Below, one piece after another: positions 5,504 to 35,734 of a stretch of 64,000 nucleotides of DNA; the first letter of the stretch is position 1, and each line of letters starts with the position of its first letter. Source of the stretch: a virus (lineage: Duplodnaviria; Heunggongvirae; Uroviricota; Caudoviricetes). Below the pieces are notes generated by a model that saw nothing but the letters and a program-made list of their open reading frames with translations, had not been told where the DNA came from and did not search any database. A program made the translations under genes and the position numbers. The stretch lies in the IMG/VR virus record IMGVR_UViG_3300032007_003791; one strand, 5' to 3'.

Positions 5504-7759
5504 TTAGTTGTTATTTACTTCTTTCGCGTTTTCCATCATTTTTTTGATGGCGTCGTTATTGTTATCGTCGTCTTCTTCTTCCTCGTCGTCTTCCTCGTTT
5601 TCTTCGTCAAGAGGGAGTTCTTCGCGGATGAGTTCGCGGATATCTCTTTTGATTCCGTCGTAGTTCTGCTGGACGACTTCCTTTACGTTTTCTTCAATCC
5701 TCGCTTCGGCCTCTTTCATGAGGATGTCTTCAATCTGGTCGTCATCGAGCATCAGGATAAGGTCCTTCTTTCTCATTTCCATTTCTTCCGGGTCGGCGAT
5801 GATGCCTTCGGACATCAGGGACTGGGTGGCCCAGTCATCAAGGATAATCGCCTTCTCGTCCTCTTCGTGTACCTGGGCAATGATTTCATCGTCATTGAAG
5901 GAGGTGATACGCGGGAGTTTTTTGAAGTTTTTTTCCTTTTCGAGCCAGCCTTTCACGTCGATTTTGATTTCGCCGCAGAAGAATTTTCTCTTGATACGTT
6001 CACTTTTCTTGTTGTTGTCGGCCACCTTCCCGAAGAAGATACCCTGTGAGAGGGTTTCAATCTTTGAGGCCGGCATGATTTCCTCCTGGTGGTAGGAAAT
6101 CTGTACGGAGTCGTGGTCGAGGTTCTGCGTCAGGGACTGCGATTCGCGGTACTCTTTACCCATCGAGTGGGAGAGGTCTTGTGCCGTCTTGCCGTTGACC
6201 TGTCCGGCGATGATGGTGCCGACGGTGTTGAAGATAACGTCCGCTTCTTTCTGCGTGTAGTCACGGATGAGCTGTGTCTTATCCTGGGCGCCGAAGACGA
6301 TGGCTACCTTATTGGAACGCGCTGTGGCGATAAGGTTGTCGAGGCCTTTGAGGAAGATGGTCGGAAGCTCGTCGAGGAGGATACCGCATTTGAGCTTATG
6401 CTTACGGTTAGCGAGTTTGAACAGGCGGCTCGTGTAGAGCGCGAGCACCGTACCGTAGATAGCCTGGCGGTTGGGGTCGTTACCGAGACACAGAATCTTC
6501 GGAGCGTCGGGCTCGTTGATGTCAAGCGTGAAGTCGTCACCGGAAAGCACCCAATAGAGTGCGGGCGAGGACATTTTGTTGAGGACGATTTTCGCCGAGG
6601 CAAGCTGGCCCTGAAGCTGATCCTGTGCGCCACCTTCGAGAGCATCGATGAAGGGACCGATTTTTGTCTCCAGTTCACGGTACTGCGAGACGATGGCGAA
6701 CACTTTCTTATAGTCCTGTCCGAGCAGTTCGATAAGGTGCGGGAAGGTGCAGTAGATACCTCCCTTATAGATAGAGAGGAAGTAAATCAGGATATCTACG
6801 AACAGGGTTGCCGAGCGTGAGAAGAAGTCGGGCTTCTCCAGGGACTCAGGTGACACGTTGGACCAGATGACTTCCGCGATTTCAGCGGTATCGGCGGGGT
6901 CGGTGATGTAACTGCGGTGGATAGGGTTACACCTGTGGGAGTAACGGGGGTTGTTGAAGTTGAGGACGAAGAATTCCGGCGACTTGGGGTCACGGATATA
7001 TTTCGGAAGTTCAGAACCTCTCCTGTAGGCGGGGTTCTTTATCGGAGGGTATTTCTCCAGGTACTCGTTGTAAAGTATCGTAGACAGGTCCGGGAACTTA
7101 TAATCGTACACGCACATGGTGTAGTTCTTCTGCATCATCTGGTGTATGAACGGATTGTACACGGAGAATGATTTACCGGAACCGGGGGTTCCGAGAATCA
7201 TGACGGCACGGAACGGATTGACTACGTTAATCCATCCGTTGTGCATCTTCTGTTTGTACTGGAACTGTGTCGGGAGGTTGATGCTGTCAGGCGTGTCGAT
7301 GAGGTATTCGGTCTGCTCGAAGGTTTCATCCACATCGTTGAGGGGTCTGGTGAAACCCCTCATATTACGGCTGATAGCCGCAATAGCCCAGCTGCAGAGG
7401 ATGTATCCCAGGACCGTGGTCATGAAATACATGTAAGGGTTCTGCGGCCAGACAAAGAAGAGGCCGAGGCCAGCAGCCAGTCCTACGATGATTGCCGCCC
7501 AGGGAGTCTCCTTACCTGTTCCGTTCCGTACGATATGCGTCATGATGACGAGAAGGAGGATGATTGATTTCGATTTGAACGGAGTGGAGAAGACGCCGCT
7601 CTTATGCAGCCTGAGCATAATCGAGTCCCCTATGGGATGACTTATCCCGTAGGCCGCGAAGACCGGGTGGCAATAATAATAAATATTGAACAACAGTATC
7701 ACCATCGCGAAGACAATGATATAGTTGAACGTCTTTTCGTATTCCTGTTTGCTGGCCAT
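5504..7759 (-). CDS. mobC: type IV coupling protein (TraG/TraD/VirD4 family; MobC of Bacteroides-type mob operons)
   Basis: 751 aa; N-terminal TM helices; Walker A GTPGSGKS; acidic C-terminal tail (EENEEDDEEEEDDD). Confidence 0.8.
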   Translation of the reverse strand: MASKQEYEKTFNYIIVFAMVILLFNIYYYCHPVFAAYGISHPIGDSIMLRLHKSGVFSTPFKSKSIILLLVIMTHIVRNGTGKETPWAAIIVGLAAGLGLFFVWPQNPYMYFMTTVLGYILCSWAIAAISRNMRGFTRPLNDVDETFEQTEYLIDTPDSINLPTQFQYKQKMHNGWINVVNPFRAVMILGTPGSGKSFSVYNPFIHQMMQKNYTMCVYDYKFPDLSTILYNEYLEKYPPIKNPAYRRGSELPKYIRDPKSPEFFVLNFNNPRYSHRCNPIHRSYITDPADTAEIAEVIWSNVSPESLEKPDFFSRSATLFVDILIYFLSIYKGGIYCTFPHLIELLGQDYKKVFAIVSQYRELETKIGPFIDALEGGAQDQLQGQLASAKIVLNKMSSPALYWVLSGDDFTLDINEPDAPKILCLGNDPNRQAIYGTVLALYTSRLFKLANRKHKLKCGILLDELPTIFLKGLDNLIATARSNKVAIVFGAQDKTQLIRDYTQKEADVIFNTVGTIIAGQVNGKTAQDLSHSMGKEYRESQSLTQNLDHDSVQISYHQEEIMPASKIETLSQGIFFGKVADNNKKSERIKRKFFCGEIKIDVKGWLEKEKNFKKLPRITSFNDDEIIAQVHEEDEKAIILDDWATQSLMSEGIIADPEEMEMRKKDLILMLDDDQIEDILMKEAEARIEENVKEVVQQNYDGIKRDIRELIREELPLDEENEEDDEEEEDDDNNNDAIKKMMENAKEVNNN

Positions 7760-8502: not shown

Positions 8503-10845
8503 TTATTTATGGACTACACGGTCATGCAGCTCGGCTTTCTTGCCGCTGTTCCAGCGCTCGGTAGTGCCGACGAGGTAGCCGGTGATGCGCTGCAGCAGGT
8601 CGAGTCTGGTGCTGCCACAGCGCGGGCATTCTTTGAGTCCGCTCTGGCCGGTTTCGTAACCGCAATCCAGGCAACGTATGCGGTTGTGGTTAACGCTGCC
8701 GTAGCCGATGTTGTATTTATCCATGAGGTCTACGACACGCATGATTGCTTCCGGGTTATGGGTGGCATCGCCGTCCATTTCAATATAGAAGATATGTCCG
8801 GCACGGGTGAGCTCGTGGTACGGGCCTTCAATGGCGGCTTTTTCTTCCGGCGTGCAGTGGTAGTAGACCGGGACGTGATTGGAGTTGGTGTAGTAATCCT
8901 TGTCGGTAACGCCTTTGATGATGCCGAATTTCTTCTTGTCAATTTTTGTAAAGCGACCGGCGAGGCCCTCTGCGGGCGTGGCGAGGACGGAATACTGGTG
9001 TTGATAGAGGTCGCAGTACTTACTGGACTGGTCACGGAAGAATGTGATTATCTTGAGACCGAGGGCCTGTGCTTCCTTACTTTCGGCATGGTGTTTCCCG
9101 ATGAGGGCGATGAGGCATTCGGCGAGCCCGATGAAGCCGATGCCGAGCGTCCCCTGTTTGAGGACCGGGGCGACGGTATCGTTCGGGCCGAGTTTTTCAC
9201 TGCCTATCCACATTCCGCTCATCAGCAGCGGGAACTGCTTGGCAAGGGCGGTAGCCTGGAACTCGTAACGCTGATGGAGCTGCAGCGCCGTAGTATCGAG
9301 GAGATTCTCAAGGTTGGTAAAGAAACGTTCGATGGTTTTCTCGTCAGCGTTGCCGTATTCCAATCCGGCTTCTTTCATGGTCTTCATGGCGAGGCCGGGG
9401 AGATTCAGCGTCGAGAAACTGAGGTTCCCGCGGCCAATAGAGGTCTTCGGACCGAAGCGGTTCTCATAGACACGGGTACGGCAACCCATGGTCGCTACCT
9501 CGTGCTCGAAGCGACGGGGATCGTCCGCCTTCCAGGCTTCGTCCTGGTTATAGGTTGCATCGAGATTGAGGTAGTTCGGGAAGAAACGCTTGGCCGTAAC
9601 CTTGCAGGCGAAGCAGTAAAGGTCGTAGTTGGGGTCACCGGGGAGGTACGACACGCCGCGTTTTTTCTTCCAAATCTGGATGGGGAAGATAGCTGTCTCG
9701 CCGTTGCCCACCCCTTCGTAGGTGGTGTTCAGTATTTCCCGGATGATGCAGCGGCCTTCCGGGGAGGTATCGGTCCCGTAGTTGATGGAGGAGAAGACCA
9801 CCTGGTTACCACCGCGGCTGTGGATGGTATTCATATTGTGCACGAACGACTCCATCGCCTGATGGACACGCCTGACAGTCCGATTGATGGCAATCTGTTG
9901 AATCCGGACAAGGGGTTCATTGGCGTGTTCATCAAAGAATTTTGACAACTCATATCCTTTAATTTCGATGTAATCCTTGATATTCTCATTACCCATTGTA
10001 ATCACGTCACCGTAATCACAACCGATAATATCATCCTTCCCTAGTTCAATAGCGAAAGCACGCATATCATCAGCAAGTTTCATAAGTTCTTCCTGATAAG
10101 CCATTCTTACATACGGTGCTAAGTAAAAATCAAAGGCCGGGATGGCCTGTCCGCCATGCATCTCGTTCTGCACAGCCTCCATAGTGATACAGGCGACGGT
10201 AGCCGCCGTCTCGATACGCTTGGCGGGACGTACGGAAGCATGGCCGTCCACGAAGCCGTTTTTAAGCAGCTTGTCTGTCGGATGCTGGATACAGGTGAGG
10301 CTCTTTGTCGGGTAGTAATCCTTGTCGTGGATATGAAGGAGGTTATCCTTGACAGCCTCCCGAACTTGTTCTGAAAGGAGGTTTTCGTCCACGTAGGTCT
10401 TGGTAGTCTCGGATGCGAATTTCATCATCATGCCGGCGGGCGTATCGGCGTTCATGTTCGCGTTCTCGCGGGTGATGTCGTTGGCCTGGGCTTGGATGAT
10501 TGAGTCGAAGATCTCTTTGGTGTCCGCTTTACGGGCGATATTGCGTTTCTCGCGGTAGCGGATATACTGCTTGGCGACAGCGGGACGGGAGGACCGCATG
10601 AGCACCGTTTCCACCATCTCGTGGATACGGTTCACGGGAAGGGTTTCGATGTTCTCGGAGATGCAGATTTCCTCCAGGCAGTCAACTACTGTCTGGGTGA
10701 GCTCGTGGGCGGTGGCGGTATTGGCGCCTATTTCGTCGTCAGCGCTGGCCATAGCCTTGAGGATGGCCGTTTCTATGCGCTGTGGGTCGAAGGCCCGGAT
10801 TCTGCCGTCACGCTTGCGGACGGACTGGATGGTAAACTGTTTCAT
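8503..10845 (-). CDS. nrdD: anaerobic ribonucleoside-triphosphate reductase (class III RNR)
   Basis: 780 aa; N-terminal ATP-cone (VRKRDGRIRAFDPQRIETAI), C-terminal Zn-ribbon (CLDCGYE...CPRCGS) followed by glycyl-radical motif RITGYL. Confidence 0.9.
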   Translation of the reverse strand: MKQFTIQSVRKRDGRIRAFDPQRIETAILKAMASADDEIGANTATAHELTQTVVDCLEEICISENIETLPVNRIHEMVETVLMRSSRPAVAKQYIRYREKRNIARKADTKEIFDSIIQAQANDITRENANMNADTPAGMMMKFASETTKTYVDENLLSEQVREAVKDNLLHIHDKDYYPTKSLTCIQHPTDKLLKNGFVDGHASVRPAKRIETAATVACITMEAVQNEMHGGQAIPAFDFYLAPYVRMAYQEELMKLADDMRAFAIELGKDDIIGCDYGDVITMGNENIKDYIEIKGYELSKFFDEHANEPLVRIQQIAINRTVRRVHQAMESFVHNMNTIHSRGGNQVVFSSINYGTDTSPEGRCIIREILNTTYEGVGNGETAIFPIQIWKKKRGVSYLPGDPNYDLYCFACKVTAKRFFPNYLNLDATYNQDEAWKADDPRRFEHEVATMGCRTRVYENRFGPKTSIGRGNLSFSTLNLPGLAMKTMKEAGLEYGNADEKTIERFFTNLENLLDTTALQLHQRYEFQATALAKQFPLLMSGMWIGSEKLGPNDTVAPVLKQGTLGIGFIGLAECLIALIGKHHAESKEAQALGLKIITFFRDQSSKYCDLYQHQYSVLATPAEGLAGRFTKIDKKKFGIIKGVTDKDYYTNSNHVPVYYHCTPEEKAAIEGPYHELTRAGHIFYIEMDGDATHNPEAIMRVVDLMDKYNIGYGSVNHNRIRCLDCGYETGQSGLKECPRCGSTRLDLLQRITGYLVGTTERWNSGKKAELHDRVVHK

Positions 10846-10851
10846 AGTGCA

Positions 10852-12282
10852 CTATTTATTAATGAATTTTCTTTTGTATTTCCTTGGTTTTCTGGTGAGA
10901 TCTCTCCAGATTTCCTTGCCGATATTTTGGAACTCGTTTATTTCATCCCTCTTGAGTTGACGTTCTATCGTATCGAGGAACATGTCACGTTTCTTCTGGA
11001 CGTAATCCTGGTGCCTCTTTTCGTATTCTTCTTTCTTTTCCTGTGATGTCTGCCAAATCTCAGCCCTTTCCTTGATGTCTTCGACGCGGAGGGCCGGGAG
11101 GAGGTCGGATGCCTTGTAGGCCGCTTTCGTCCGCTGGTCCACGATTGTGACACCGAAGAGTTCTCCGTTCACGTTGAAGGAGAAACAGGCATGGAGTCCT
11201 TTCTTTTGCAGCATCTTCTCGAAGTGGCGCTGCGATTTGGAAATCCCCAGGAAGTAGGAAGCCGTGCGCCCTATTCTTGCGCGGTCGGGCCGCGTTGATG
11301 ATTTGATGGCGGATGCTTCTTCGGAGTATTTCTTTATGGACTCTTCCATTATCTGATGGGAGTCCATTTTCAATTCCGTTTCCTTGATAGGCGTCGTGAC
11401 GTTCTCTTCGTTTTCGTTGAGTCCCTGAAAAGACAGATGGATTCCTTTCTTATTGGTATACTCCGTGACTCTAAGGCCCATCATTTCACATACGGCGGCG
11501 AACTGGTTAAAGGTCGTGAAGCGGTATTTCAGTGCTTCATTGAAGATATCTTTAACCTGCTGTTTTACCTTTCCTTTATCCCTTTCGAAACGAACAGGTA
11601 TATTCGTTTTTTCGGTGAAAACCTCTTCCCTTTCGGGTTTTTCCGTTTGGCTGTAATCGTATACAGGTTCGGGGTCCGGGAGCATGCTCCCTACTGAGGA
11701 CATTCCGTCAAAGTCCAGAATGGGTTCCATGATAGGTTCGTAGATTGGTCCGGTAGGAACCGTTTCAATATTTCTGTTATTTAACGAAGTCTGTTCTACT
11801 GTTTTCTTTTTGTTCGAGGGACTGCCAAGTGTATAATGGTATTTGGTTTCAAGACGCTTGGTGATTTTCTCCAGGCGTCTTTTTTCGAACTTGTCGCTAA
11901 TCTTCTTCCCTTTTGCGTCGACACGGCACGAAACGACATGGTAGTGGGTGCGTTCAATATCGTGGTGCTTATAGACTACGAAGGGCTGTTTGCCGTAGCC
12001 CATTTTTTCCATGATTTCCGTGGCAAGAGCGAAAGCCTCCTGGTCGGAGAGCGCTTCCGCTTCTATCTCCGGATTCGGATTGATAGAGAGCTGGAACGTC
12101 AGGTTATCTGTACGGATATTCGCTCTTTCAAGTCTTCCGAAGACAAGGCGGGTAAAAGGAGGGTCAGCCTTCGGCATGCCGCTGAATCCAATGACGGAAG
12201 CAACGCCCTTCTTTACTTTGCTTTCGTTGTAAACAAGGGTGCCGTTCATTGCCGGGCGGCTTTTATGTATTTTTACTACCAT
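10852..12282 (-). CDS. mobB: MOB-family relaxase (MobB-like)
   Basis: 476 aa; relaxase His-triad motif HHDIERTHYHVV (HxDxxxxHxH); adjacent to the MobA-like and coupling protein genes. Confidence 0.8.
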   Translation of the reverse strand: MVVKIHKSRPAMNGTLVYNESKVKKGVASVIGFSGMPKADPPFTRLVFGRLERANIRTDNLTFQLSINPNPEIEAEALSDQEAFALATEIMEKMGYGKQPFVVYKHHDIERTHYHVVSCRVDAKGKKISDKFEKRRLEKITKRLETKYHYTLGSPSNKKKTVEQTSLNNRNIETVPTGPIYEPIMEPILDFDGMSSVGSMLPDPEPVYDYSQTEKPEREEVFTEKTNIPVRFERDKGKVKQQVKDIFNEALKYRFTTFNQFAAVCEMMGLRVTEYTNKKGIHLSFQGLNENEENVTTPIKETELKMDSHQIMEESIKKYSEEASAIKSSTRPDRARIGRTASYFLGISKSQRHFEKMLQKKGLHACFSFNVNGELFGVTIVDQRTKAAYKASDLLPALRVEDIKERAEIWQTSQEKKEEYEKRHQDYVQKKRDMFLDTIERQLKRDEINEFQNIGKEIWRDLTRKPRKYKRKFINK

Positions 12283-12341
12283 ATTTAACTATACTGGTCG
12301 GAAAGTTTGCGGAAGGCGAAGGAGATTTCTTTGAGTGGCAG

Positions 12342-12680
12342 TCACCACTCGCCCGGCTGGGTAGGACTATCTCCTTTCTTGGGCGGGAGTTCGACCTTCC
12401 AGGCGGAGACGCTGTTATGCAGGTATTCCTTCCCGTCTTGGCTGCGGCTGGTTGTCTGGCGGAAGTTACCGAAAACGGAGACGTATTGTCCTTTCTTAAG
12501 GAAAGGGAATACGCCGGACTTGGAACAGGTTACCTCGTAGTAGGTGGTAATACGGCCCGTCTTGGTCTGTTCGTTACAGGCCATATTGAAACTGATGAAT
12601 TCAGCGGTTACTCCGTTCTCGTTCGAGGTGCGGATTACTGCATCTCTTGTAAGGTTGCCTGTTAAAAAGATAATCTGCAT
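12342..12680 (-). CDS. ssb: short single-stranded DNA-binding protein (OB-fold)
   Basis: 112 aa; SSB-like N-terminus IIFLTGNLTRDAVIRTSNENGVTAEFISFNMACNE and a YVSVFGNFR-type beta strand. Confidence 0.55.
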   Translation of the reverse strand: MQIIFLTGNLTRDAVIRTSNENGVTAEFISFNMACNEQTKTGRITTYYEVTCSKSGVFPFLKKGQYVSVFGNFRQTTSRSQDGKEYLHNSVSAWKVELPPKKGDSPTQPGEW

Positions 12681-12684
12681 ATCT

Positions 12685-13095
12685 CTATTCGTTGTTAATC
12701 GTACTCATTTCATCAATGTTGTCTATGATCTGCGTCTGGAGGTCATAGACCTTTTCCGTGAGGAGTTCCAGGCGGTGGATGTGTTCATCCACGATGGGAA
12801 TGGTCAGGGCCCTTGCCTGGTGGAGCCGGTTGTAACTGGCGACGACCTGGTTGTAGTTACGTCCGATTTCCTGAATCCGGCGGGAAAGGATGTCTACCCT
12901 GTTAAGGACCTCGCGGTCCTTTACCTTGCCACGTGATTTGTACTTCGTCTTACGGAGTACGGTATCACGGATATAACGGGCAAATGACATGTAACCGAAA
13001 GCAGCCATTTCGGATAATATTTGTTCGTTTTCATCCACTGTGAGTTTTATGGTGTGACATATAACTCTTGGATTTTTGCTTTTCGGTCTTCCCAT
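12685..13095 (-). CDS. mobA: mobilization relaxosome accessory protein (MobA-like RHH)
   Basis: 136 aa, basic N-terminus. First gene of the mob operon, divergent from the ParA operon across the candidate oriT. Confidence 0.65.
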   Translation of the reverse strand: MGRPKSKNPRVICHTIKLTVDENEQILSEMAAFGYMSFARYIRDTVLRKTKYKSRGKVKDREVLNRVDILSRRIQEIGRNYNQVVASYNRLHQARALTIPIVDEHIHRLELLTEKVYDLQTQIIDNIDEMSTINNE

Positions 13096-13513
13096 TTTTT
13101 CGTTGTCTACCTTTTATTCAAAGCATTCAATTGTCCCATATAGAAGAACGCGACTCCGGAGCGGTCTTCCCCCTCCCCTGTAGTGGGAGGGCCAGTGAGC
13201 ACCACTGTGGGGTGCGTTGTTTTCAGGAACCTGAAAACACATCTGGCAGTTACATGAACACCTGCCAGAAGGGGGCCCACATTACAAAGGTAGTGGTTTT
13301 TATTTAAATCGCAATATTTTTTGCGGAAAAAGAAATGTTTTTCTATATTTGTGGTGTGTAAGAAACTATAAGGGGTTATAAATCGCTTTATAAAAACAGA
13401 AACTTATACATGGTTGTAAAAGACATTATAACCTTATAAGCGTCTATAAAGTGTTTTATAGAGTTATACGTAGTTATAAGGCTCCTTATAATTAAGGTGA
13501 AAGAGGAATAGTT
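13096..13513. promoter_or_regulatory. candidate oriT / divergent promoter region with iteron array
   Basis: Intergenic region between divergent mobA (-) and DUF3408/ParA (+) operons. Perfect inverted repeat gttttcagg-aa-cctgaaaac (~13213-13235); inverted repeat ctggcag...ctgccag (~13243-13271); 7-bp hairpin ccctccc/gggaggg (~13170-13190). At least 11 TTATAA/TTATAC-type repeats between 13365 and 13494 at roughly helical spacing. Confidence 0.5.
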
Positions 13514-13972
13514 TTGCGGCCGCCGTGTGCGGACGATTTTAAAAGGATTTTTATGGCGAAAAGAGAACCTTTAAAGGAAGGCATGTTTAAGAACGGGTTT
13601 AATTTTTCGGAGCCCGTTGCGGCTCCTGTTGAGGAGTCGGTCAAGGTCGAAGTTGAGGAGACGGTTTCTGATTCTTCTGCCGGTGAGGTTTCCCCTCCCC
13701 CGGAGGAGGTTTCCGTTTCGGAACCCGTACCTGCGAAGATTGTAAGGAAAGGGCGTCGTGCTTCTGGTCGTAACGCGGAGAAGGTTGATAAGGTCACTTC
13801 GAAGGAAGGGGGCAAGACGCACTTTATAATCCAGACGCGGGTTGTGAAGAGGGTCCGTTTGCTTCATATGGTATGGAATAACTGCCAGGGGCTTAATATG
13901 AGTATAGATGATTTTGTTGAGCTTCTGGTGGACAGTTTTTCTGATATTCACAAGTCTGAGATTCGTATTTGA
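13514..13972 (+). CDS. DUF3408-like conjugative-element protein
   Basis: 152 aa; C-terminal domain RLLHMVWNNCQGLNMSIDDFVELLVD, duplicated in the next ORF. Sits before the ParA-like gene as in CTn tra operons. Confidence 0.5.
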   Translation: MRPPCADDFKRIFMAKREPLKEGMFKNGFNFSEPVAAPVEESVKVEVEETVSDSSAGEVSPPPEEVSVSEPVPAKIVRKGRRASGRNAEKVDKVTSKEGGKTHFIIQTRVVKRVRLLHMVWNNCQGLNMSIDDFVELLVDSFSDIHKSEIRI

Positions 13973-13994
13973 TAATTTGATAGAATAAGAAGTT

Positions 13995-14219
13995 ATGGAA
14001 AGTAAAGAGTGCAAGAAAAATCAAAAGAGTGCATCTAAGGAAGATAGTCGTACTCATCTTTTTGTTCGTACCAGGAGTATTAAGAGAATACGTCTGTTAC
14101 GTCTGTTATGGAATAACTGTCAGGGAACGGATATGAGTCTGGATGATTTTTTTGAGGTTTTAGCAGATGATTTCTGCGTTAAGCATAAGTCTGATTTACA
14201 AGGTTTATTAAATATTTGA
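13995..14219 (+). CDS. DUF3408-like protein, paralog of the preceding ORF
   Basis: 74 aa; RLLRLLWNNCQGTDMSLDDFFEVLADDF aligns with the C-terminus of 13514..13972. Confidence 0.45.
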   Translation: MESKECKKNQKSASKEDSRTHLFVRTRSIKRIRLLRLLWNNCQGTDMSLDDFFEVLADDFCVKHKSDLQGLLNI

Positions 14220-14223
14220 TATT

Positions 14224-14985
14224 ATGGCTGTTTTTTCATTCTTTAACGAGAAGGGAGGTTCTGGTAAGAGCCTTCACAGTGTGCTTTTCGGTAGTTACCT
14301 GGCGTACGCCCGTGGCGCGAGGGTCTGCCTGTTGGATTTCGAGTTTGTTCCCCGCCTCGAGAAGACACGGAAGAACGAGGACAATTTTCTTTCGGATGAG
14401 AAATCCGTTCTTTCGCGTTACCTCGCTTCGCACCCCCAGGAGGACGGCGTACTGGATATTGTGAACGTCCCGAAGGAGATTCTTACGGAGCGCGTCAACC
14501 AGCGTGAGAAGATTAGTGATTATGTCAGCGACATGTCGACGAAGTACGATTATGTCATCATGGACCTCCCGGCGGAGTTCAGTACGGCACAGTCCCTTTC
14601 GTTTATCGCCTTGCAGTGTATCGTGGATATGGTTGCGGTTCCTTTTGATTATACTCCGACGGTCTTTACCTGTGCGGCCAATACTGCTGAGGTCCTGCGG
14701 AATATCAGTGTTCCGACGGTGATGTTTTGGAATAAAGTCTCTGCCCGCTACTTGAAGCGTGACGATTTCCTGGATCGCCTTGAGGTTCGTCTTATTGATA
14801 TGGGGTTCGACGTTCTTCCGCACCGTATCAAGTACTTCCAGAAGGCGATGCGTGAGTCCAAGGAGCAGTTCTTTGTGGTTTCCACTTATTGCTGGCCGCG
14901 TCGTTATGTGGAGATGTCCTGTCCGGCGCTTGAGCTGCTTTACAGCTGCTTGAAGGAACGGTTGGATGCTATTGTTGCGGAGTAG
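14224..14985 (+). CDS. ParA-family ATPase (TraA-like of conjugative transposons)
   Basis: 253 aa; deviant Walker A NEKGGSGKS at the N-terminus. Confidence 0.8.
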   Translation: MAVFSFFNEKGGSGKSLHSVLFGSYLAYARGARVCLLDFEFVPRLEKTRKNEDNFLSDEKSVLSRYLASHPQEDGVLDIVNVPKEILTERVNQREKISDYVSDMSTKYDYVIMDLPAEFSTAQSLSFIALQCIVDMVAVPFDYTPTVFTCAANTAEVLRNISVPTVMFWNKVSARYLKRDDFLDRLEVRLIDMGFDVLPHRIKYFQKAMRESKEQFFVVSTYCWPRRYVEMSCPALELLYSCLKERLDAIVAE

Positions 14986-14988
14986 TAT

Positions 14989-15381
14989 ATGTATTATTTG
15001 GATAAGGACGGGTTTTATGACGAGCTCTTGGAACTGAATGGCCGCCGGCTTTCTTGTATCAGCGGTTATTGTAGTTCCATGAGTGTCCGTTGGGTTAACA
15101 TCGACGGGCGCAGGGTGTATGGTCATGAGTTGAGGATGTTCAATATGAAGGGGCATGCCTTTACGGTTTTTCTTCCCCCTGAAAAGGACGTTATTCGTGA
15201 TGCGATGGGTTTCCTTTGGAATTTTATAAGCACGAAGCCTCATTCGTCCTTGTTTAGTTTTATCTACCGTGCTGGGCCGGATAAGCGTTGTACTTTCATT
15301 ATCATGTATGATGGCAATGTGGTTTTTCCGGTTTATCATCGGTTGAATTTTAATAAGGAGGATTCTCATGGCAAGAAGTAA
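14989..15381 (+). CDS. hypothetical protein (tra-operon small protein)
   Basis: 130 aa ORF, 14-nt overlap with the next ORF. Confidence 0.4.
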   Translation: MYYLDKDGFYDELLELNGRRLSCISGYCSSMSVRWVNIDGRRVYGHELRMFNMKGHAFTVFLPPEKDVIRDAMGFLWNFISTKPHSSLFSFIYRAGPDKRCTFIIMYDGNVVFPVYHRLNFNKEDSHGKK

Positions 15382-15788: not shown

Positions 15789-16424
15789 ATGGCAAAGAGT
15801 ATTATTGGCAATGGTGGTTTCAGTTCCACTTTCAAGTTATGGAATGCGTGCGACGGTGATAGTGGGAACGAAGCTTTGGCATACGTTCATTTTTCTGGCG
15901 GGTACGCCTATGCTTCCAATGCGCATATTCTTGTGCGTATTCCCTTGGACAGGTGTACGGGTTTCGACGAAGAGGAGCGTTCGCGTCTTGCAGGGAAGTC
16001 CATACACATGGACCTTTTGAAGTACCTCTCGAAGTACGACAATCTTTCGGTCGTGGACCACGAGTACGTGGATGAGGACGGGGAGGAAGTGAAGACGGCA
16101 TGTATAGAGGGTTGGATAGAGAAGTGTCGCGTAAGTGTAGACCTTGCGACGCAGGATATGGTCCGCCGTCCGGACTTTGAGAAAGTGTTGTCGGTGGGCA
16201 GCGGTACACGGAAGCGTATTGAGGACATTGGTGTCAATGCGGGTTTGCTGTCGAAGTTTGTCTCCGCGATGGGTGCGGAGAATATCAAGATGCAGTTCAC
16301 GAAGGCGGATGGCAAGATTTTCATTGAGCCTGTGAGTGATGTTGAGGCTTCGGGCGGTGTCCTGGGTCTTATTATGCCGATAGCGGTGACGGGTACGCTT
16401 GATGGGTTTGATGAGGTTGAATGA
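15789..16424 (+). CDS. hypothetical protein
   Basis: 211 aa ORF. Last gene of the + operon before the G-rich noncoding tract. Confidence 0.45.
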   Translation: MAKSIIGNGGFSSTFKLWNACDGDSGNEALAYVHFSGGYAYASNAHILVRIPLDRCTGFDEEERSRLAGKSIHMDLLKYLSKYDNLSVVDHEYVDEDGEEVKTACIEGWIEKCRVSVDLATQDMVRRPDFEKVLSVGSGTRKRIEDIGVNAGLLSKFVSAMGAENIKMQFTKADGKIFIEPVSDVEASGGVLGLIMPIAVTGTLDGFDEVE

Positions 16425-16439
16425 TTTAGGGACCATCCT

Positions 16440-17683
16440 TGAGGGTGGTCTTTTTTGTTGAATGTCCGTTTGTTGGTTGTTGAGGGTGGTTAGGGGTGTT
16501 GTTTTTGTCCGCGAAAGATTCGATGTCCGTTCCTCCTTCCGTGCCAATGGGTTAGCACGGAAGAAAAGAACTGACTGTAGTCCGCGAATGTTTCATAGTC
16601 CGTTTCCCGATAGAGTCCGCGACGTTGATAAGGCGGGTTGGGACGTGCGGCCCGCGGGCCCCTTTTGTGGGTGGGATATATTGAACTCCTGGAGACGGAG
16701 GCCTGAAGTGGCCGGAGTCCCCAGGAGTTTGCGGAAAAAAGGGAAGCGGGCTTTGATTCGGTGTCCCTTGAGCCCTTGGGCTTTCAAGTGCGTTGGGAGG
16801 GCTCACGCGGGGCCCCGTGCAACGCCTCCGGCATCTCTGATGGCGAAGGCGTACGGGGAGGCGTGAGCCCGTGCGGGGAGGGAAAAGCGCGTGGAGGAAT
16901 TGGGTCAAGGTTGTGGGTAGGATGAGGAAAACTGTGTGCGTGTGTGGGGAGGCGAAAAGGGCCCCGTATGTGGGTATATCCATATGCGGTGTAAGGCGGG
17001 AGCCGAAAGGCGCAAAGCCTGGAACAGGTATATGGATATGGGTTTGTGCAGGAGTGGATAGACCCCGTAACCCTTGTGGTGAGGGGTCGGTCCTGGCATT
17101 TTTGAGCACCGGAGTTATGAAAAATATGCCCTTGGGCGTATTTTTTTACGGAGGGCGCAGGAACATGACAGGAATCCACTCCAGGTATACGGGAAAATGC
17201 GGGAGGAAAGGTTGCCGTAAAGGTGTATTGGGGGTTCATTGTTTTTGGTGGTGTTGGGCTTTGGGCGTGTCCGCGAAGGAATCGGTGTCCGTTAAACCTG
17301 CTGGTTCCTGCGAGTGTGTAGGCTATAGAGTGGAGAGAATTGCTGGAGCGGAGCCGGGCGTAGCCCAGCATATCTCCAAGGATAGCAGGATGCAGGTTTT
17401 GAATGTGCGTTTGCGTTTTATATTTTTTTTTGTTTCGGTGCAGGCCGGCCGGCAGGCCGGACTGTTGTGCGGTAGGAAGGGAAGAAAAAACGGTAGGCGA
17501 AAATAGAAAGTTGGGTTCTGTTCTTTAATGGATGCTGTTATTTTTTTCGAAGGGTGGCTGTTTGCGTTGCGTCGAAGGGGTGGAAAAAAGGCGGATGGAA
17601 ATCGTATGCCTGAGCATACGAGACACATCCGCCGTAAAGAAGGGATGCAAACGCAAAGGGCTTTTATGAAATTCGCCCGGGAA
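16440..17683. other. G-skewed gene-free tract 1 (left part; continues at 19326-19760 after the IS605 insertion)
   Basis: No credible ORF; only Gly/Arg/Cys/Trp-rich artefactual frames. Many hairpins and recurring GGGCCCC boxes. Internal direct repeat gtccgcgaa(a/g)ga(t/a)tcg(a/g)tgtccgtt at ~16503 and ~17270. Confidence 0.6.
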
Positions 17684-17766
17684 AACCCACGATTTCAATC
17701 GTGGGATGAAAGGGCGCAAAATTCTTGGAATTTCGGGAAATAATCGTTACATTTGTATGTAACGAA

Positions 17767-18162
17767 ATGAAGAAACTGGCACATCATATCACTTCAGTAG
17801 TGAACATCAGTTACCATATCATCTGGTGTCCAAAGTACCGTCGTAAAGTACTTGTTGATGATGTGGAGCAAAGATTAAAAGAAATACTTCCGCAAATTGC
17901 GGAAGAGATGGGCTGCAGGATTGAGACGATGGAAGTGATGCCAGATCACGTGCGTATATTCATGCGCGGGACGCCAACACTTCCTGTGCATTTGATTGTC
18001 AAGAATCTTAAAGCGGTCAGTGCGAGGATACTACGCTCAGAATTTCCTGAATTGAAACGTCGGATGAATACGATGTGGACCAGGAGTTACTATTGTGAGA
18101 CCGTCGGCAGCATTTCCGAGCAAACCATACAGAAGTACATCGAGAACCAGAAGAATGCTTAG
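17767..18162 (+). CDS. tnpA: IS200-type Y1 (HUH) transposase TnpA, with the HUH motif changed to HVR
   Basis: N-terminus [29 protein letters not shown]; catalytic Tyr region [23 protein letters not shown]; HUH position reads PDHVRIF (cgt codon). Start chosen at MKK (17767) rather than the track start. Confidence 0.8.
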
Positions 18163-19297
18163 GGCAATCAAATACGAACTCCGCCCGAACGCCACACAGC
18201 GCTCGCTCATCAACCGTACCTGCGGATGCTGCCGGTTCGTATACAACAGAGCCCTTGCATTTGCGAAAGAGAACCGTGTCAGCAATTACGACCTTGTGAA
18301 GCGGCTACCCGGTCTTAAGTCCGAGTTCGACTGGCTGAAAGAAGTGCCGTCTCAAGCCTTGCAACAAGCGGTGATAGATCTCGGTAAGGCGTTCAAGAAC
18401 AAGTGGAACGGACACAACGACTGGCCGGTGTTCCACAAAAAAGGTCGGAAGGATTCGTACCGCATCCCGGCCGGTTGCGAGATTGACTACACGCACTATA
18501 AGGTCAAGCTTGCCAAACTGGGGTGGGTCAAGTTTTACAAGGACAAACCTATAGACCAGGCGAAAATACATTCATATACTGTCAGCAGGTCGTCAACCGG
18601 ACGATACTACATATCGCTATTGTACGAAGCGCCTGACCGTTTACCTCTTGCCAACGGGAAGTCCGTCGGTATAGACGTGGGCGTCAAGGAGTTCGCCGTC
18701 TGTTCGGACGGGGTGGTGTTTGAAAACCAAAAGCACTACCGGCGTCAGATGCGGCGTCTTCGCGTCCTACAGAGGACGATGGCTCGGCGTTACGACAAAG
18801 GCAGGGATATTTACGATGCAAACGGGCGGAAAATCGGCGAGAACGGTCCTCAGTCAAGGAACTGGTACAAAGCCAAGGCGGCCGTTGCCAAATGCCATGA
18901 GAAAATCAGGAACCAGCGGAACGACTATCTCAACAAGGTAAGTTCCCTGATTGCTTCTCAATATAGCATCGTCTGTGTCGAAGACCTGAACGTCAAGGGC
19001 ATGGTGAAGAACCGCCATTTGTCAAAAGCAATATCCGACTGCGGCTGGACCGCATTCAAGACGATGCTGAAATACAAGTGCGACACGCTCATCGAGGTGG
19101 ACAGGTTCTTCGCGTCCAGCCAGACGTGCCATTGCTGCGGCTATAAGAACGTTCGTGTCAAAAACCTGTCCGTACGTGACTGGGTCTGTCCCGAATGCGG
19201 GACACACCACGACAGGGACGAAAACGCCGCACAGAACATACTCCGGGAAGGACTGTCTCGGTATTCCATAAGCGCTTCAGTGGAAGCGCTGGGATAG
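18157..19297 (+). CDS. tnpB: TnpB (OrfB; RuvC-like RNA-guided nuclease of IS605)
   Basis: ~380 aa from [12 protein letters not shown]; split RuvC (GIDVGVKEF...; [11 protein letters not shown]), C-terminal zinc finger CHCCGY...CPECG. Overlaps the tnpA 3' end. Confidence 0.9.
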
Positions 19298-19325
19298 AAC
19301 CCCACGAATTCATTCGTGGGAGCAG

Positions 19326-19760
19326 TCAGGATGCGGTGTTTTTACTGCGCCGGGCCCCGTGAAAGGGATTCTCAGAGCGTCTCTGAGTACCGAACGGGAA
19401 GCGCAGATATGAGAAAGCGTCGGGTCCCGGGGAGCGTGCGGCGGAGTGTTCCTCCGCCGCAAGTCTCAACGGGTGACGCGAATTGGGGAAAAGTCGGGCC
19501 CCGTGAAAGCAAGCGATGAAAATCTGATACGAATAGTATCAGAGGGTCATCGCAAAATTGAACGGGTGACGAGTGGGATGGGTGAAGGAAGTGGGTGTTT
19601 GTTTTATGGCTGAGAGGGAGGTCGGGGGCACTGAAAAGAAATGGGGAAGGAACCGTAGTCCCCTCCCCCGTATAAGGATACTTGGATGTTGTCTGTTTAG
19701 GATTTAACCACTTTTTGCGTTTACCCGGTAAGGGGCTGACTGCAATTTGAGGTTGAAAAC
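19326..19760. other. G-skewed gene-free tract 1 (right part) / likely TnpB guide-flank region
   Basis: No ORF; repeated gggccccgtgaaag boxes at ~19352 and ~19496. Composition matches 16440-17683. Confidence 0.5.
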
Positions 19761-19762
19761 CG

Positions 19763-20458
19763 TTATTTGTCAGCGTTTTTCCGGTAGGGCGATGAGGTGC
19801 CGGATTCGAAGTGTATCTCATGCTTGCCGTCCAGGGTTTCACGGACGGATGTGAAGTGGAAGGTGCTCCGCTGGATGCCGGACAGGAACTGTTCGCGTCC
19901 AAGGAGTTCAAGGGCCTCTTCGAGCGTGATGGCTGTTTCGTAGTCCAGGAGATAGACGGACTGGTTGGCACAGGTCTCGATGTATTTTAGGTCTTCTTCC
20001 CTTTCGCCCCAGTTCATCAGAAGGGTCTTGTCTTCTTCTGTGAGGATAAAGGGGGTCTTTGGTTTGAAGTACTTGCACTTCGCCTTGTAGGCTTTATTAA
20101 GGCGGGCGGCAAGGACGGCGTTGCTGTAGCGTGGACCGTCTATGTCGTTTACAAGGACGGCGGGGTCTTTGAACGAGTCGCCGTAATGAGGTTTGGAGAG
20201 CATTGAATCGACTACCTCCATTGCGGACTTGATGGTGAAGTGCTCCTGGCCAAGGATATGTCGGAGTATTTTTCCTTGGTACTGCAGTTGGAGGTTGCCT
20301 TCTTTGTTGTTGAGGCCGCGTGTTGTCACTGCGAGCATGAGGTTGCGGCCGTTCGTGGGATGTTTGAAGACTGCAACGATTTCGTTGAAATAGTTTTTGT
20401 AGAATTCCGGCTGTGTTTCGTATCTGGCCGGTATGAAATTGGGTCTGTTCTTAATCAT
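19763..20458 (-). CDS. hypothetical protein
   Basis: 231 aa ORF. First gene of the long minus-strand block. Confidence 0.45.
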   Translation of the reverse strand: MIKNRPNFIPARYETQPEFYKNYFNEIVAVFKHPTNGRNLMLAVTTRGLNNKEGNLQLQYQGKILRHILGQEHFTIKSAMEVVDSMLSKPHYGDSFKDPAVLVNDIDGPRYSNAVLAARLNKAYKAKCKYFKPKTPFILTEEDKTLLMNWGEREEDLKYIETCANQSVYLLDYETAITLEEALELLGREQFLSGIQRSTFHFTSVRETLDGKHEIHFESGTSSPYRKNADK

Positions 20459-21248: not shown

Positions 21249-22091
21249 TTATTGTTTTTGAATATTGATGAATGGCATGGCGCCGCTGCCATTGTAGGTC
21301 GGCATTTGGCCGTTCCATTTTTCGATGGCGTATTGCTGTACGAGGAGGCTGTTGAGTGAGGCGGCCACGACGCGGTTATAGTAGGCTTCGCCGTCGCCCT
21401 GGATTTTCTGGGCTTCTGCTTCACCCCTTGCTTTTGCAATTGCTATCTTGGCTTCCGCTTCGGCTTCCTTGACCTTGTTCTCGGCCTTGAGTGCATTTTG
21501 TACGGCTTCATTCTTGGCGTTGATTGCTGCTGTCAATGACTCCGGCGGGTCAATCTTGGTGGTGAATTCCCTGACGATGAATCCTTCCTGGTTCATTGAT
21601 TCGTCGAGACGTTGTCGTACTTCGCTTTCGAATTTGGCCCTGTTTGCCATGAGTTCGTCGGAGGTGTAGTTGTTGGCGCAGGTGCGGTAGGCTTCGAAGA
21701 TACATGTACTGATATAGCCTTGTTCTAACTCCTTGACTGGCTTTCTGTATTTGACGAAGATGTCGACGGCTTTCTTTTCGTCAATCTGGTATGCCAGCGT
21801 CGGTTTCATTGAGAAGATGGCAGCATCCTTCGGATTGACGGTGAAGGCGTCGTAGGTGACGCGCTGGATGTAGGTTGGATACTCGAACACGTTCTCGGTG
21901 ATCATGTTGTACCAGACCCAGCCTCGGCAGGTGCCTTCGACACCGCCTTTCAGGTTCTCGTCAGATGACCATTTCTTGAACTTGATTCCGACCGATGCGG
22001 AGTCAATGGTTGTGCATGCGCAGGAGGAGGCGAAGGCCGTGATGGCCAGGAGAGCTGCCAGAAGCAGCAGGATGGATTTTGCTTTTTTCAT
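21249..22091 (-). CDS. SPFH/band-7 domain lipoprotein (HflC/prohibitin-like)
   Basis: 280 aa; lipoprotein signal LLAITAFASSC; band-7 core plus Ala/Glu-rich coiled coil AEAEAKIAIAKARGEAEAQKI. Confidence 0.75.
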   Translation of the reverse strand: MKKAKSILLLLAALLAITAFASSCACTTIDSASVGIKFKKWSSDENLKGGVEGTCRGWVWYNMITENVFEYPTYIQRVTYDAFTVNPKDAAIFSMKPTLAYQIDEKKAVDIFVKYRKPVKELEQGYISTCIFEAYRTCANNYTSDELMANRAKFESEVRQRLDESMNQEGFIVREFTTKIDPPESLTAAINAKNEAVQNALKAENKVKEAEAEAKIAIAKARGEAEAQKIQGDGEAYYNRVVAASLNSLLVQQYAIEKWNGQMPTYNGSGAMPFINIQKQ

Positions 22092-22133
22092 AGAAATTGT
22101 TTTTGAGTGTTTATTTATGGGTGTTTTTATTTC

Positions 22134-23054
22134 TTATTTGATGATTGTGTTATTTTCGTTCCAAGAGATAGAGATATTGCCGGAAACAAGGCACTTGAAC
22201 GTGTTAATCCGGCGGTTCTCAATGTCGTTTTCGCAGACTTGCTCCGCCACTTTTGAACCGATATTCCAGTTGACGATAACCGGTAATTTCGCCGGAATGA
22301 GCACATACCGTACAAATCCGAGCGTAAGAGGGTTTTCAATGCAGGTAATCTGGCCGCCCAGGTATTCAATCAAGTTCTCGAAAAAGCTATTGTACTCTGC
22401 GTCCGAAAGAATCATTTTCGCCGCCTCGTCGTTGTTTTGAGGGTTTACGGAAAAAGAGTCTTTCGGAATGATATTGGAAACGCGCACCTCGTCGCAAGCT
22501 CCTTTCAGCGTTTCGTAGAACCGCATAAAAGAATCCAGGTTATCGTGATTCTCACGCCAGATATTCGTGTTTACACGGACCTTTATGCCGTTATCGTGCG
22601 CAATATCGTAGATTTCTTTCAGCCTTGAACGTAAGATAAAGTCCTCGTTATGATAGGAAATGTTCAGCCCGTAAAGACCGGCACGAATCATGTCGATTAA
22701 AAGCTGGTTAGTAAGCGCTATTCCGTTGGTGGTTAAGCGCACCTTTTGAATGCCGGCGTCGTAGAGCCCGGTTATCATTTCGCAAATATCCGGGTGGAGA
22801 GTAGGCTCGCCGCCAAGAATGATTGCTTCCTTGATGCCGTATTTTTCAACCGCCTCTTTAACTGTCCTGCGCATCTTTTTTACGGACAGTTGAAGCGTAT
22901 GGTCGGTTTCGCTATTGATGCAATAAGGGCAAGCCCTATTACATTTATTTGTTGCCACTACCGATAAATAGGCGTTGTTCGATACAAGACCTATTTCGGT
23001 AGGATAATAAACGTTTTGCTTGAAGATTTCAAGCGAGTCTTTTTGAATGATCAT
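22134..23054 (-). CDS. radical SAM enzyme (CxxxCxxC; MoaA/activase-like, specific function unknown)
   Basis: 306 aa; CNRACPYC cluster, GGEPTL motif, TTNG motif. Confidence 0.75.
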   Translation of the reverse strand: MIIQKDSLEIFKQNVYYPTEIGLVSNNAYLSVVATNKCNRACPYCINSETDHTLQLSVKKMRRTVKEAVEKYGIKEAIILGGEPTLHPDICEMITGLYDAGIQKVRLTTNGIALTNQLLIDMIRAGLYGLNISYHNEDFILRSRLKEIYDIAHDNGIKVRVNTNIWRENHDNLDSFMRFYETLKGACDEVRVSNIIPKDSFSVNPQNNDEAAKMILSDAEYNSFFENLIEYLGGQITCIENPLTLGFVRYVLIPAKLPVIVNWNIGSKVAEQVCENDIENRRINTFKCLVSGNISISWNENNTIIK

Positions 23055-23087
23055 TTTAAGTTTCGCAAGTGGTAAAGTGGATATGGA

Positions 23088-23408
23088 TTATTGTCTGGAA
23101 AAGACATAGTCCGGATTCTTGTCGAATCCAGAAATGGAAATCTTGTAATCGTCGAAATCTTGTCTGTTAGCAATCCGGAATCTTCCCTTGGGGGCTAAGA
23201 TGATTTTATCAAGCAATGTCGGTTCGCCTCCTTTTATGTGCTGGATTGCCAGCACAACGAGTTTACAGAAAGGCTCCGAGATGTCATCGTCGGTATAGCC
23301 GAAGGTGTTTTCGTCTAAAACGATGAAGGTCGTTTTACTCGTTTTATGCATATTCGTCAAATTGATGTTTATTGGCATTTTGAAAATGCTCCGGCCGGTA
23401 GCATCCAT
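23088..23408 (-). CDS. hypothetical small protein (shares the heptapeptide GGEPTLL with the adjacent radical SAM protein; possible gene remnant)
   Basis: 106 aa ORF, overlaps the next ORF by 40 nt. Confidence 0.3.
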   Translation of the reverse strand: MDATGRSIFKMPININLTNMHKTSKTTFIVLDENTFGYTDDDISEPFCKLVVLAIQHIKGGEPTLLDKIILAPKGRFRIANRQDFDDYKISISGFDKNPDYVFSRQ

Positions 23409-24340
23409 TGTTTTTCGTCAGGGACAATGACAGGAGCGGTATATCCGAAGGAGGTTGCAAGGGTGGCCAGTTCTGGGGTTATGGCCTCATAAGGTTTCCC
23501 TTTTGCGATGAGAGAAGTAAGGTCGGTGTCCCGTTTGAGCGTGACGCCGAAATCCTTTTCAAAGGCAACGAGCTTGTCGAACTTGTGTCTGGAGATGCAG
23601 GCTGCGCTGGCGAACTGATGCTGGTTGCCGAAGACACAGAATTTGCAGGAACATCGTCCGAAGCCCATGAAGTAACAGGGGTGTGGCCGGATGCGGTATT
23701 TCTCCAGGAGGTCCCAGACCTGTTGTTCCTTCCAGTCTCGGATGGGACGGAACCGGTCGATGTGGCGGAAGGAGTGTTTGCCGCTGCGGAGGTCGGCCTT
23801 GTCGGGTTCCAGGATGGCATAGCCTGCCCGTTGCTTGCTCTCTTCTCCGCGTTCGCCGGAGAGGACCAGCGTGCGGATATTCTGGAATCTCGGGTCATGA
23901 CGGAGTGCCGTGGTACAGACGTCGATTTTCAGGTAAGCCGAGCACCAGCGCACACGGAGGTCCGGGGATGGCTGAGGGAAGCGGCGTCTGGTGGAAGGTT
24001 TGCCACGTTCTCCGCCAACGCTTTCTGTGGTTCCGTCAGGAAGTTCAAAGTGGACGGGTGCCGTGAGGCTGTTGTCGCGGAGCATTTCTCTTGTAAATCC
24101 GCCTTCTTTCCACTGAAAGAGGACGGAAATACCGAGGGCTTCGCCAAGCTTGCGGCAGTAGTCCGGGGTTACTTCCCAGTCGAAGAGGCTGGGGCCGCGT
24201 CCGTCTATCTCCTGATGCCAGAGCTCGATTTTCTCTTTCGGAACGCCGTTGTCAAGGAGGTACAACAGGCAGGCTGTGGAGTCTTTTCCGCCAGAAAAGG
24301 AGACAATGTATTTGTCGTACGAAAGAAGGTCAAATTCCAT
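23369..24340 (-). CDS. PAPS-reductase-like PP-loop ATPase family protein
   Basis: 323 aa; PP-loop VSFSGGKDSTACLL; C-terminal Cys cluster CSCKFC. Confidence 0.75.
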   Translation of the reverse strand: MEFDLLSYDKYIVSFSGGKDSTACLLYLLDNGVPKEKIELWHQEIDGRGPSLFDWEVTPDYCRKLGEALGISVLFQWKEGGFTREMLRDNSLTAPVHFELPDGTTESVGGERGKPSTRRRFPQPSPDLRVRWCSAYLKIDVCTTALRHDPRFQNIRTLVLSGERGEESKQRAGYAILEPDKADLRSGKHSFRHIDRFRPIRDWKEQQVWDLLEKYRIRPHPCYFMGFGRCSCKFCVFGNQHQFASAACISRHKFDKLVAFEKDFGVTLKRDTDLTSLIAKGKPYEAITPELATLATSFGYTAPVIVPDEKQWMLPAGAFSKCQ

Positions 24341-35688: not shown

Positions 35689-35734
35689 TGCTTTCTATTT
35701 TATAATTAAGGTTGTTATTTCTGTTTTTAGATTT

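Follow-up and report, generated by a model that had tools for sequence, protein, structure and literature searches.

The DNA analysed here, a 64,000-nucleotide stretch of IMG/VR virus record IMGVR_UViG_3300032007_003791 (the whole of which is called the window), belongs to a Bacteroidales-type integrative conjugative element (ICE). Between its ParA operon and the first of its minus-strand genes lies a tract that is a modular, strand-specific array of hairpin cassettes, a real, selected non-coding element and not a gene remnant. This tract (tract A) consists of positions 16425–17673 and 19330–19762 (joined length 1682 nt, ~1.68 kb) and is split by an IS200/IS605 insertion sequence (IS) spanning ~17674–19329. 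The IS ends were placed by three observations: Logan contigs break off 30 nt within either end (17703 and 19300), the end hairpins match, and in a close relative, L006, the same IS has inserted independently and in inverted orientation. An IS-free copy was sought via identical flanking proteins, and all contigs found carry the IS or end in it. An earlier note, made from the letters of this DNA alone, had described the tract as G-skewed, hairpin-rich non-coding DNA into which an IS605 element had inserted, and this description was confirmed. The tract continues beyond the IS, with three copies of the junction module described below directly after it (19344–19572), and local folding resolves it into a chain of separate, independently folding stem-loop domains, one of which has the GC palindrome pointed out in that note (17439–17462) as its tip. 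The G-skew is 0.30–0.44 in the tract, but part of it is regional, since the + strand of the whole 64 kb has a value of ~+0.1. No match to Pfam was found at E ≤ 1 in the long open reading frames (ORFs) or in the six frames of the joined tract. Relative to 91%-identical L006, the tract has several 1–2 nt indels, a 36-nt insertion and one replaced hairpin, and therefore no reading frame is preserved, in agreement with the initial impression that no credible ORF is present.

Many of the hairpin domains are built on a shared plan. An outer stem, P1, is followed by an unpaired (N)GGG(N), an inner stem starting with CCC and one or more variable terminal hairpins of 17–107 nt, and the domain closes with GGG, 1–4 mostly A-rich bases and P1', i.e. 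P1-(N)GGG-CCC...GGG-A(A)G-P1'. P1 is unique to each copy (GGCCCGC, GGGCTCACGC, GCGTC, ATCCGCT, GGCGTTC, GGCACCCCGC, TTCTTCTCTTTC and others), and the inner stems differ too. A MAFFT-based covariance model would have been unreliable because of the 17–107 nt variation of the inserts, and a structural descriptor combined with shuffles was therefore used. The descriptor found nine matches in 64 kb, all on the + strand and all inside two tracts, with none elsewhere on either strand, versus 0.6 matches (maximum 3 in 300) in dinucleotide shuffles of the same two tracts. The second of these, a tract of the same family at 40290–41490 (tract C), was exposed by this module search; it contains four consecutive modules and has a folding z-score of −12.2. 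In 240-nt folding segments tract C was a clear outlier and tract A no more structured than several other spots of the window; the folding z-score of tract B was −4.2. An ORF called inside tract C (40573–40956, minus strand) was rejected as an artefact, its translation being Pro/Arg/Thr-rich junk.

The GGGCCCC boxes already noticed in tract A (found at 16656, 16810, 16959, 19352 and 19496, + strand, all no more than a few bases from the positions first given) are the 5' half of the shared junction. Their raw count over the whole window is not significant (14 vs 7.2 ± 3.1); what is significant is their clustering and structural context. In 12.1 kb of tracts pooled from the window and three relatives (L008, L004 and L005), GGGCCC was enriched 8-fold (27 vs 3.3). 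The CCC of the box pairs 40–150 nt downstream in most copies, and the GGG is predicted to be largely unpaired in ~12 of the 27. Readings of the junction as a K-turn, a pseudoknot or a CRISPR-repeat mimic were dropped by eye, since the 5' strand of the junction lacks GA, the loops offer no CCC partner and repeat similarity is absent. Each tract opens with a conserved G/T-rich head of ~30–45 nt (..TGGTTTGTAAGGGTGGTTTGGGG.., TTGAATGTCCGTTT...GGTTGTTGAGGGTGGTTAGGGG), after which the stem-loop chain begins. Heads (..GGTTTGTAAGGGWGGTKWGGGG..) lie at ~16484 and ~40741 of the window, with a degenerate one at ~17246, and the head profile matches tracts only, on the + strand only. The head was rejected as a canonical Bacteroidetes promoter, its conserved blocks misfitting the −33/−7 spacing. 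No match to a degenerate head pattern was found among IMG/VR viral contigs, nor any blastn match to tract A among PLSDB plasmids.

The tract family belongs to a small, rare ICE lineage of rumen- or gut-type Bacteroidales. The 211-aa protein encoded directly upstream of tract A has a handful of homologues among 5.8 billion proteins, and ParA has eight at E ≤ 1e-40; four further lineages were drawn from the homologue contigs, with one match each from genome and metagenome scans (L007 is an uncultured Bacteroidales metagenome-assembled genome). Relatives with 58–78% identical ParA carry tracts of 1–5.8 kb in the same position, with the same heads and GGGCCC boxes and otherwise unalignable. A tract occupies this position in four lineages (L008, L004, L005 and L012), and a + strand head after the ParA operon followed by GGGCCC-box hairpin domains, by which we define the family, was found in the window, L008, L005, L004, L006 and L012. 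No tract was found in L013 (ParA 61% identical). In L008 (metagenome contig OCVV011158900.1, of the lineage of L003 and L007) synteny extends from the coupling protein to the 211-aa gene, and the ~5.8 kb at 9380–15200 are poor in ORFs, G-skewed and dense in hairpins, and contain two AT-rich islands and at least three heads; the tracts of L004 and L005 are similar. In L012 (ParA 58% identical) oriT, ParA, a small Cys-rich ORF, a terminator and the head are followed by ~1 kb of hairpins with GGGCCCC/GGGTCCC boxes and then by minus-strand, SSB-containing genes. The IS200/IS605 copy of L006 (2559–2627) lies in opposite orientation directly after the cassette head, and therefore the tract was hit twice independently. 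A normal-looking 137-aa ORF inside the L008 tract (13154–13567, + strand) was uninformative as evidence for gene cassettes, having a single, 97%-identical homologue.

The primary sequence of the tracts turns over fast, yet substitutions that compensate or are compatible with wobble keep it paired. In blastn between lineages only the heads align past the last gene, save for one segment of L005 and L008. This segment is a mosaic in which ~400 nt at 95% identity lie beside a stretch at 60–76%, with loops conserved and stems rebuilt. In the comparison of L008 with L005, for which the structure was predicted from L008 only, 90.6% of cells were paired, and 18 double-sided changes were counted versus 9.1 ± 2.1 in column shuffles (0/500) and 1–7 with slid partners. 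The closer pair, the window and L006, gave a weaker signal of the same sign (7 vs 4.0, 19/500), which includes a G-C to C-G compensation in the inner hairpin of the module at 16649–16752. Changes from Watson-Crick to G-U outnumbered those from Watson-Crick to A-C by ~2:1 on the + strand (80 vs 38, each the sum of four non-independent counts). Between lineages, conservation of the letters is limited to the ~30-nt head, short boxes and the one L005/L008 segment. Cassettes are duplicated or shuffled between relatives; inside tract A, 17234–17293 is a 60-nt direct repeat of 16472–16531 at 72% identity.

We tentatively favour, at somewhat below an even chance, the reading that the tracts specify one or more structured non-coding RNAs of the + strand acting through the repeated hairpin junctions, in preference to action as single-stranded DNA (ssDNA). 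The active form would be RNA from the + strand, made in tract A by read-through or from weak promoters behind the ParA operon, and in tract C from its own consensus promoter, ending at + strand terminators. The copies of the junction hairpin (GGG/CCC-GGG/AA) might serve as a multivalent platform, a sponge or decoy, for a putative structure-specific protein of the element or host, and the RNA would presumably not act via one global fold. Tract A lies directly 3' of the only + strand operon, and the + strand units are closed by terminator-like hairpins with T-runs (17296–17432, 19735–19780 and 41454–41490). The strict promoter pattern TTTG-N17-21-TAnnTTTG has three matches in 64 kb, one at 40311–40340 and one on the + strand before the ParA operon, where its position is conserved in L008, L012, L013 and L014. 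Matches with one mismatch are 3.6-fold enriched in the 200 nt before heads, and that at 40671–40702 would set the transcription start at the beginning of head 3.

Several observations weigh against an RNA. The enrichment of near-consensus promoters may merely follow from T/G-rich composition, and no consensus promoter was found before tract A or before the heads of L008, L004, L005 and L012. The stems are Watson-Crick symmetric, and z is the same on both strands and with DNA parameters (−12.2, −12.15, −11.4 and −10.2 for tract C across both strands and RNA and DNA parameters); folding alone therefore selects neither strand nor molecule, and a choice of strand by folding energy was rejected. 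The G-U excess could be due to a C-to-T mutation bias on the + strand. Among 52 predicted tetraloops there were two GNRA and no UNCG loops, which is chance level and argues against a classic tertiary-folded RNA; CUUG occurred six times versus none in shuffles. The AlphaFold model of the conserved 211-aa neighbour had a pLDDT of 45 and was therefore not taken into a fold search.

The main competitor, which we consider rather unlikely, is that the hairpins fold on the transferred + strand (T-strand) as ssDNA and serve as initiation or priming sites or as ssDNA-promoter-like sites, for duplex conversion of the ParA operon (of the same sense as the T-strand) and later segments, or for early transcription of the minus-strand leading region. 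The relaxase side is normally transferred last (F, RP4, R64). By analogy with this rule, from which the strand assignment derives, the + strand would enter 5' to 3' from oriT at ~13.1–13.5 kb, with the relaxase, MobC and the coupling protein lying to its left. All genes at 19763–63575 (19.8–63.5 kb) are on the minus strand, oriented back to oriT, and include cargo typical of leading regions (C5 and DUF4942 methyltransferases, RadC, DprA, an SSB-like ORF, PcfJ and RNase H), as well as AbiEii, MoxR-VWA and a ComM-like ATPase. Tract A is exactly 3' of the only + sense operon, and tract C precedes the MoxR-VWA operon when read in the minus sense. With DNA parameters the hairpins have the same stability (z = −11.4), GNRA and UNCG loops are unenriched, and structure is conserved while sequence is free, as reported for the ssi/Frpo classes (PMC12672017). 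The ssDNA-dependent IS200/IS605 entered the tract independently in the window and L006, but the orientations of the two insertions are opposite. Both promoter boxes are rebuilt by none of the hairpins; that at 40321–40421 has the −7 box in its stem and the −33 box outside, and its DNA folding reaches only −27 kcal/mol, and there is no minus-strand gene downstream of tract A to drive. Priming needs far less than 1–5.8 kb with dozens of hairpins, and a T-strand role leaves the conserved unpaired head and the + strand terminators unexplained.

The tracts can be compared with known systems. In IncI/IncF leading regions every intergenic segment upstream of an operon is reported to form large hairpins, which have unrelated sequences and serve as promoters or priming sites on ssDNA (PMC12672017). 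The tracts resemble these Frpo/ssi sites as non-coding, strand-specific intergenic hairpin segments of several sequence classes, with structure prevailing over sequence, in the predicted first-entering part (PMC12672017). In contrast to the known sites, each a single ~300-nt hairpin that rebuilds the −35 and −10 boxes directly upstream of an operon, the tracts are arrays of dozens of short branched domains with an unpaired conserved head and the GGG/CCC junction. The sole in-hairpin consensus (40311–40340) has −33 outside the stem, and the modules are G/C-rich without TTTG or TAnnTTTG boxes. The ssoA CS-6 motif (TAGCGT) was not enriched in the pooled tracts (3 vs 3.8 expected). With integron attC sites and CALINs (clusters of attC sites lacking an integrase) the tracts share same-orientation folded arrays, two helices with an unpaired spacer, a variable tip, free stems and a mosaic make-up. 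They differ in lacking the R''/R' cores (RYYYAAC/GTTRRRY) that attC conserves at the base of its hairpin. The modules follow one another directly, hardly any cassette ORF lies among them, and no sequence is common to the P1 stems; the window ORFs scanned against Pfam include no tyrosine recombinase. The CsrB/RsmZ sponge RNAs likewise repeat one small structural motif in variable copy number on a single non-coding transcript, but their motif is a GGA hairpin loop, whereas that of the tracts is an internal-loop junction, and the sole such Rfam match was at chance level (14 bits). REP, BIME and MITE elements occur as many near-identical palindromic copies; within the window the modules share architecture, not stem sequence.

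It is possible, although we judge it unlikely, that the tracts are devices of a class not described before, by which Bacteroidales conjugative elements establish themselves or counter defences. As fast-evolving arrays of exchangeable, structure-defined hairpin modules, they would act on the first-entering strand or its transcript. They could then be decoys for a host sensor or nuclease of structured nucleic acid, or attC-/ssi-like recombination or priming cassettes. Gene-free DNA of 1–6 kb is rarely kept by bacterial mobile elements, and here such DNA, in the predicted first-entering part, is selected for pairing, keeps its head and junction, turns over rapidly and has had cassettes duplicated. 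If the favoured RNA reading is true, it would be a new class of multi-hairpin non-coding RNA of rumen/gut Bacteroidales, absent from Rfam; if the tracts act as ssDNA, the Frpo/ssi concept would be carried beyond Proteobacteria in a very different, arrayed form. Either way they would offer a testable handle on how Bacteroidales conjugative elements establish themselves in new hosts.

Two further readings are improbable to a similar degree. One sees the tracts as insulation of convergent transcription units from each other, the hairpins and C-rich minus-strand linkers forming a zone of multiple terminators or of Rho loading, with 3' stabilisers, that would block read-through both ways between the minus-strand operons and the ParA operon with oriT. 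Both tracts lie where minus-strand transcription units end, with bidirectional terminator hairpins on their borders, the stems fold equally well on either strand, and the unpaired linkers of the minus strand are C-rich and G-poor, because the + strand has 33% G and 19.5% C. Insulation, however, does not require 1.2–5.8 kb, and it leaves unexplained the conserved head, the junction motif, cassette duplication and the compensatory evolution of branched domains.

The other takes up the protein-binding array proposed in the earlier note, which survives, with little probability, for the first ~200 nt only. There, eight same-orientation GTCCG boxes (16464–16620 and 17269–17291) might form a double-stranded centromere-like or operator site for the small proteins of the ParA operon. 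P1 parS and F sopC sit just downstream of their own par operons, a precedent by analogy for a site directly after the ParA operon. Three GTCCGCGAA-N9-GTCCGTT boxes were found versus 0.05 expected by chance; those at 16507 and 17269 are the internal direct repeat seen before, and that at 16580 is a third copy. GTCCG is 3-fold enriched and orientation-biased in all lineages (15 + vs 5 − in L008), but the full 25-nt box is limited to the window/L006 lineage, and the array leaves the hairpin modules wholly unexplained. Moreover, the TTATAA array upstream of ParA (13340–13500), with the two paralogous small genes, is the likelier candidate and probably serves the ParA module as operator or centromere. 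The GTCCG signal (often TGTCCGKT), ~3-fold enriched and strongly + oriented at 16161–17291 and 40203–40943 and in the tracts of L008, L004 and L005, resembles signals that are dispersed in one orientation, for example primase, Chi-like or protein-binding sites.

Non-functional DNA, be it the decayed remains of tra or other genes or an accumulation of dead small repeat elements, is largely refuted and very improbable. Quick sequence turnover between relatives, the two tolerated IS insertions and a length ranging from 1 to 5.8 kb would suit it, but the six-frame Pfam search was empty, compensatory changes exceeded both controls, the head persists in relatives whose ParA is as little as 58% identical, the module count far exceeds that of shuffles, and four lineages have the tract at this position, with two tracts present in this element. 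The earlier idea of a decayed or replaced tra region, taken here as a degraded CTnDOT-type operon, fails on the same empty search at E ≤ 1 and on the presence of the same tract type in L008, L004, L005 and L012 and at 40.3–41.5 kb. Its premise, that traE–traQ occupy this position in comparable elements, is not supported either, as neither ParA nor any of the three small genes behind it could be matched to a Bacteroidetes Tra family (NCBIfam, Pfam). One large tertiary-folded RNA of the GOLLD/ROOL/OLE size class, also put forward in that note, is not supported and hardly credible despite a joined 1.68 kb of G-rich, strongly folded DNA, since Rfam 15 (GOLLD, ROOL, OLE, HEARO, raiA and others) gave no match in 16300–19900 at E ≤ 1, there is no long-range conserved architecture, relatives have only heads and short boxes in common, length varies 5-fold, and GNRA loops are at chance level. 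The tracts are like GOLLD, ROOL and HEARO as long, non-coding, strongly folded regions on mobile elements, and differ in being modular and repetitive, with no covariance-model match, no conserved global architecture and no GNRA enrichment. The search recovered HEARO at 4746–4977 (112.6 bits) as a positive control, and searches at gathering and permissive thresholds (E ≤ 1–5) on 40200–41600 and L008 9300–15400 yielded only chance-level matches resembling miRNA-precursor hairpins.

Table 1. Coordinates of the two tracts and of the genes on the oriT side of tract A.
Feature	Position	Strand	Remark
Topoisomerase III	1152–3356	minus	
IscB-type gene	3353–4657	minus	RRXRR + HNH, 434 aa
YWFCY-type coupling protein (T4CP)	5504–7759	minus	
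Anaerobic ribonucleotide reductase NrdD	8503–10845	minus	
MobB-like relaxase	10852–12282	minus	
MobC	12685–13095	minus	
oriT/promoter region	13.1–13.55 kb		rich in hairpins and iterons
ParA	14224–14985	+	
Three small genes after ParA	last ends 16424	+	
Intrinsic terminator of ParA operon	16428–16457	+	11-bp stem and T-run
Cassette head 1	16458–16501	+	TTGAATGTCCGTTTG...GGGTGGTTAGGGGTGTTG; aligns with heads of L008, L005, L004, L006 and L012
Two GTCCGCGAA-N9-GTCCGTT boxes	16507–16604	+	16507–16531 and 16580–16604, around hairpin 16536–16563
Additional GTCCGCGAC	16615	+	
Junction module	16649–16752	+	GGCCCGC-gggc-CCCTTTT[70]AAAAGGG-aa-GCGGGCT
Junction module	16799–16870	+	GGGCTCACGC-gggg-CCCCGTGC[30]GTACGGGG-ag-GCGTGAGCCC
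Three stem-loop domains	16959–17235	+	16960–17088 (starts GGGCCCC), 17089–17177, 17178–17235
Degenerate head 2 and third GTCCGCGAA-N9-GTCCGTT box	17234–17293	+	head 17234–17263; box 17269
Long hairpin and T-runs (terminator-like)	17296–17432	+	then TTGAATGTGCGTTTG, repeating 16458–16472
Hairpins	17408–17662	+	17408–17499 (tip is the GC palindrome) and 17556–17662
IS200/IS605 insertion	17674–19329	+	foreign to tract; tnpA 17725–18162, tnpB 18161–19297
IS end hairpins	17686–17706 and 19300–19321		
Three junction modules	19344–19572	+	19344–19405, 19417–19479 (GGGTCCC variant), 19493–19572
Terminal hairpins	19576–19780	+	
Terminator-like hairpin with T-run	19735–19780	+	overlaps 3' end of minus-strand gene 19763–20458
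Bacteroidetes promoter consensus, perfect	40311–40340	+	TTTG-N18-TAACTTTG; aims into tract C
One-mismatch promoter match	40671–40702	+	just upstream of head 3
Cassette head 3	40706–40758	+	TTGAATTGTCCGTTTACAGG..GGGTGGTTTGGGG
Four junction modules	40963–41349	+	40963–41027, 41041–41117, 41139–41235, 41246–41349
Near-perfect 20–22 bp hairpin	41389–41432		
Bidirectional terminator	41454–41490		in common with AbiEii gene

Other features were noted along the element. The full-length HEARO/omega RNA lies immediately upstream of the IscB-type gene, and the two form an intact IscB-omega RNA unit (3353–4977, minus strand). NrdD, an unusual cargo for a mobilisation module, is placed between the coupling protein and the relaxase, an order kept in L001 and L008. 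The TTATAA(G/R) iteron-like array (13320–13500) adjoins conserved divergent promoters, and the two paralogous small genes after it (13583–14219, + strand) contain a 188-nt internal repeat (13799–13982/14034–14221). On the minus strand, 21249–24340 encodes an SPFH/Band-7 protein, a radical-SAM protein (MoaA/viperin-like matches, all sub-cutoff) and a PAPS-reductase/DndC-like protein, a cluster that could be a DNA- or nucleotide-modification or anti-defence module. A second, distinct TnpB gene is present at 47676–48803 on the minus strand (region 46957–48803); downstream of it, 720 nt of intergenic DNA fold strongly (z ~−5.8 at 47041–47280) and may contain its guide RNA and right end. Finally, an unlisted SSB-like small ORF (35340–35690, minus strand) is followed by a structured intergenic region (35690–36007), the hairpin of which has the motif CGCAGCCCGCA(A)GGG in common with tract C (40478–40495).

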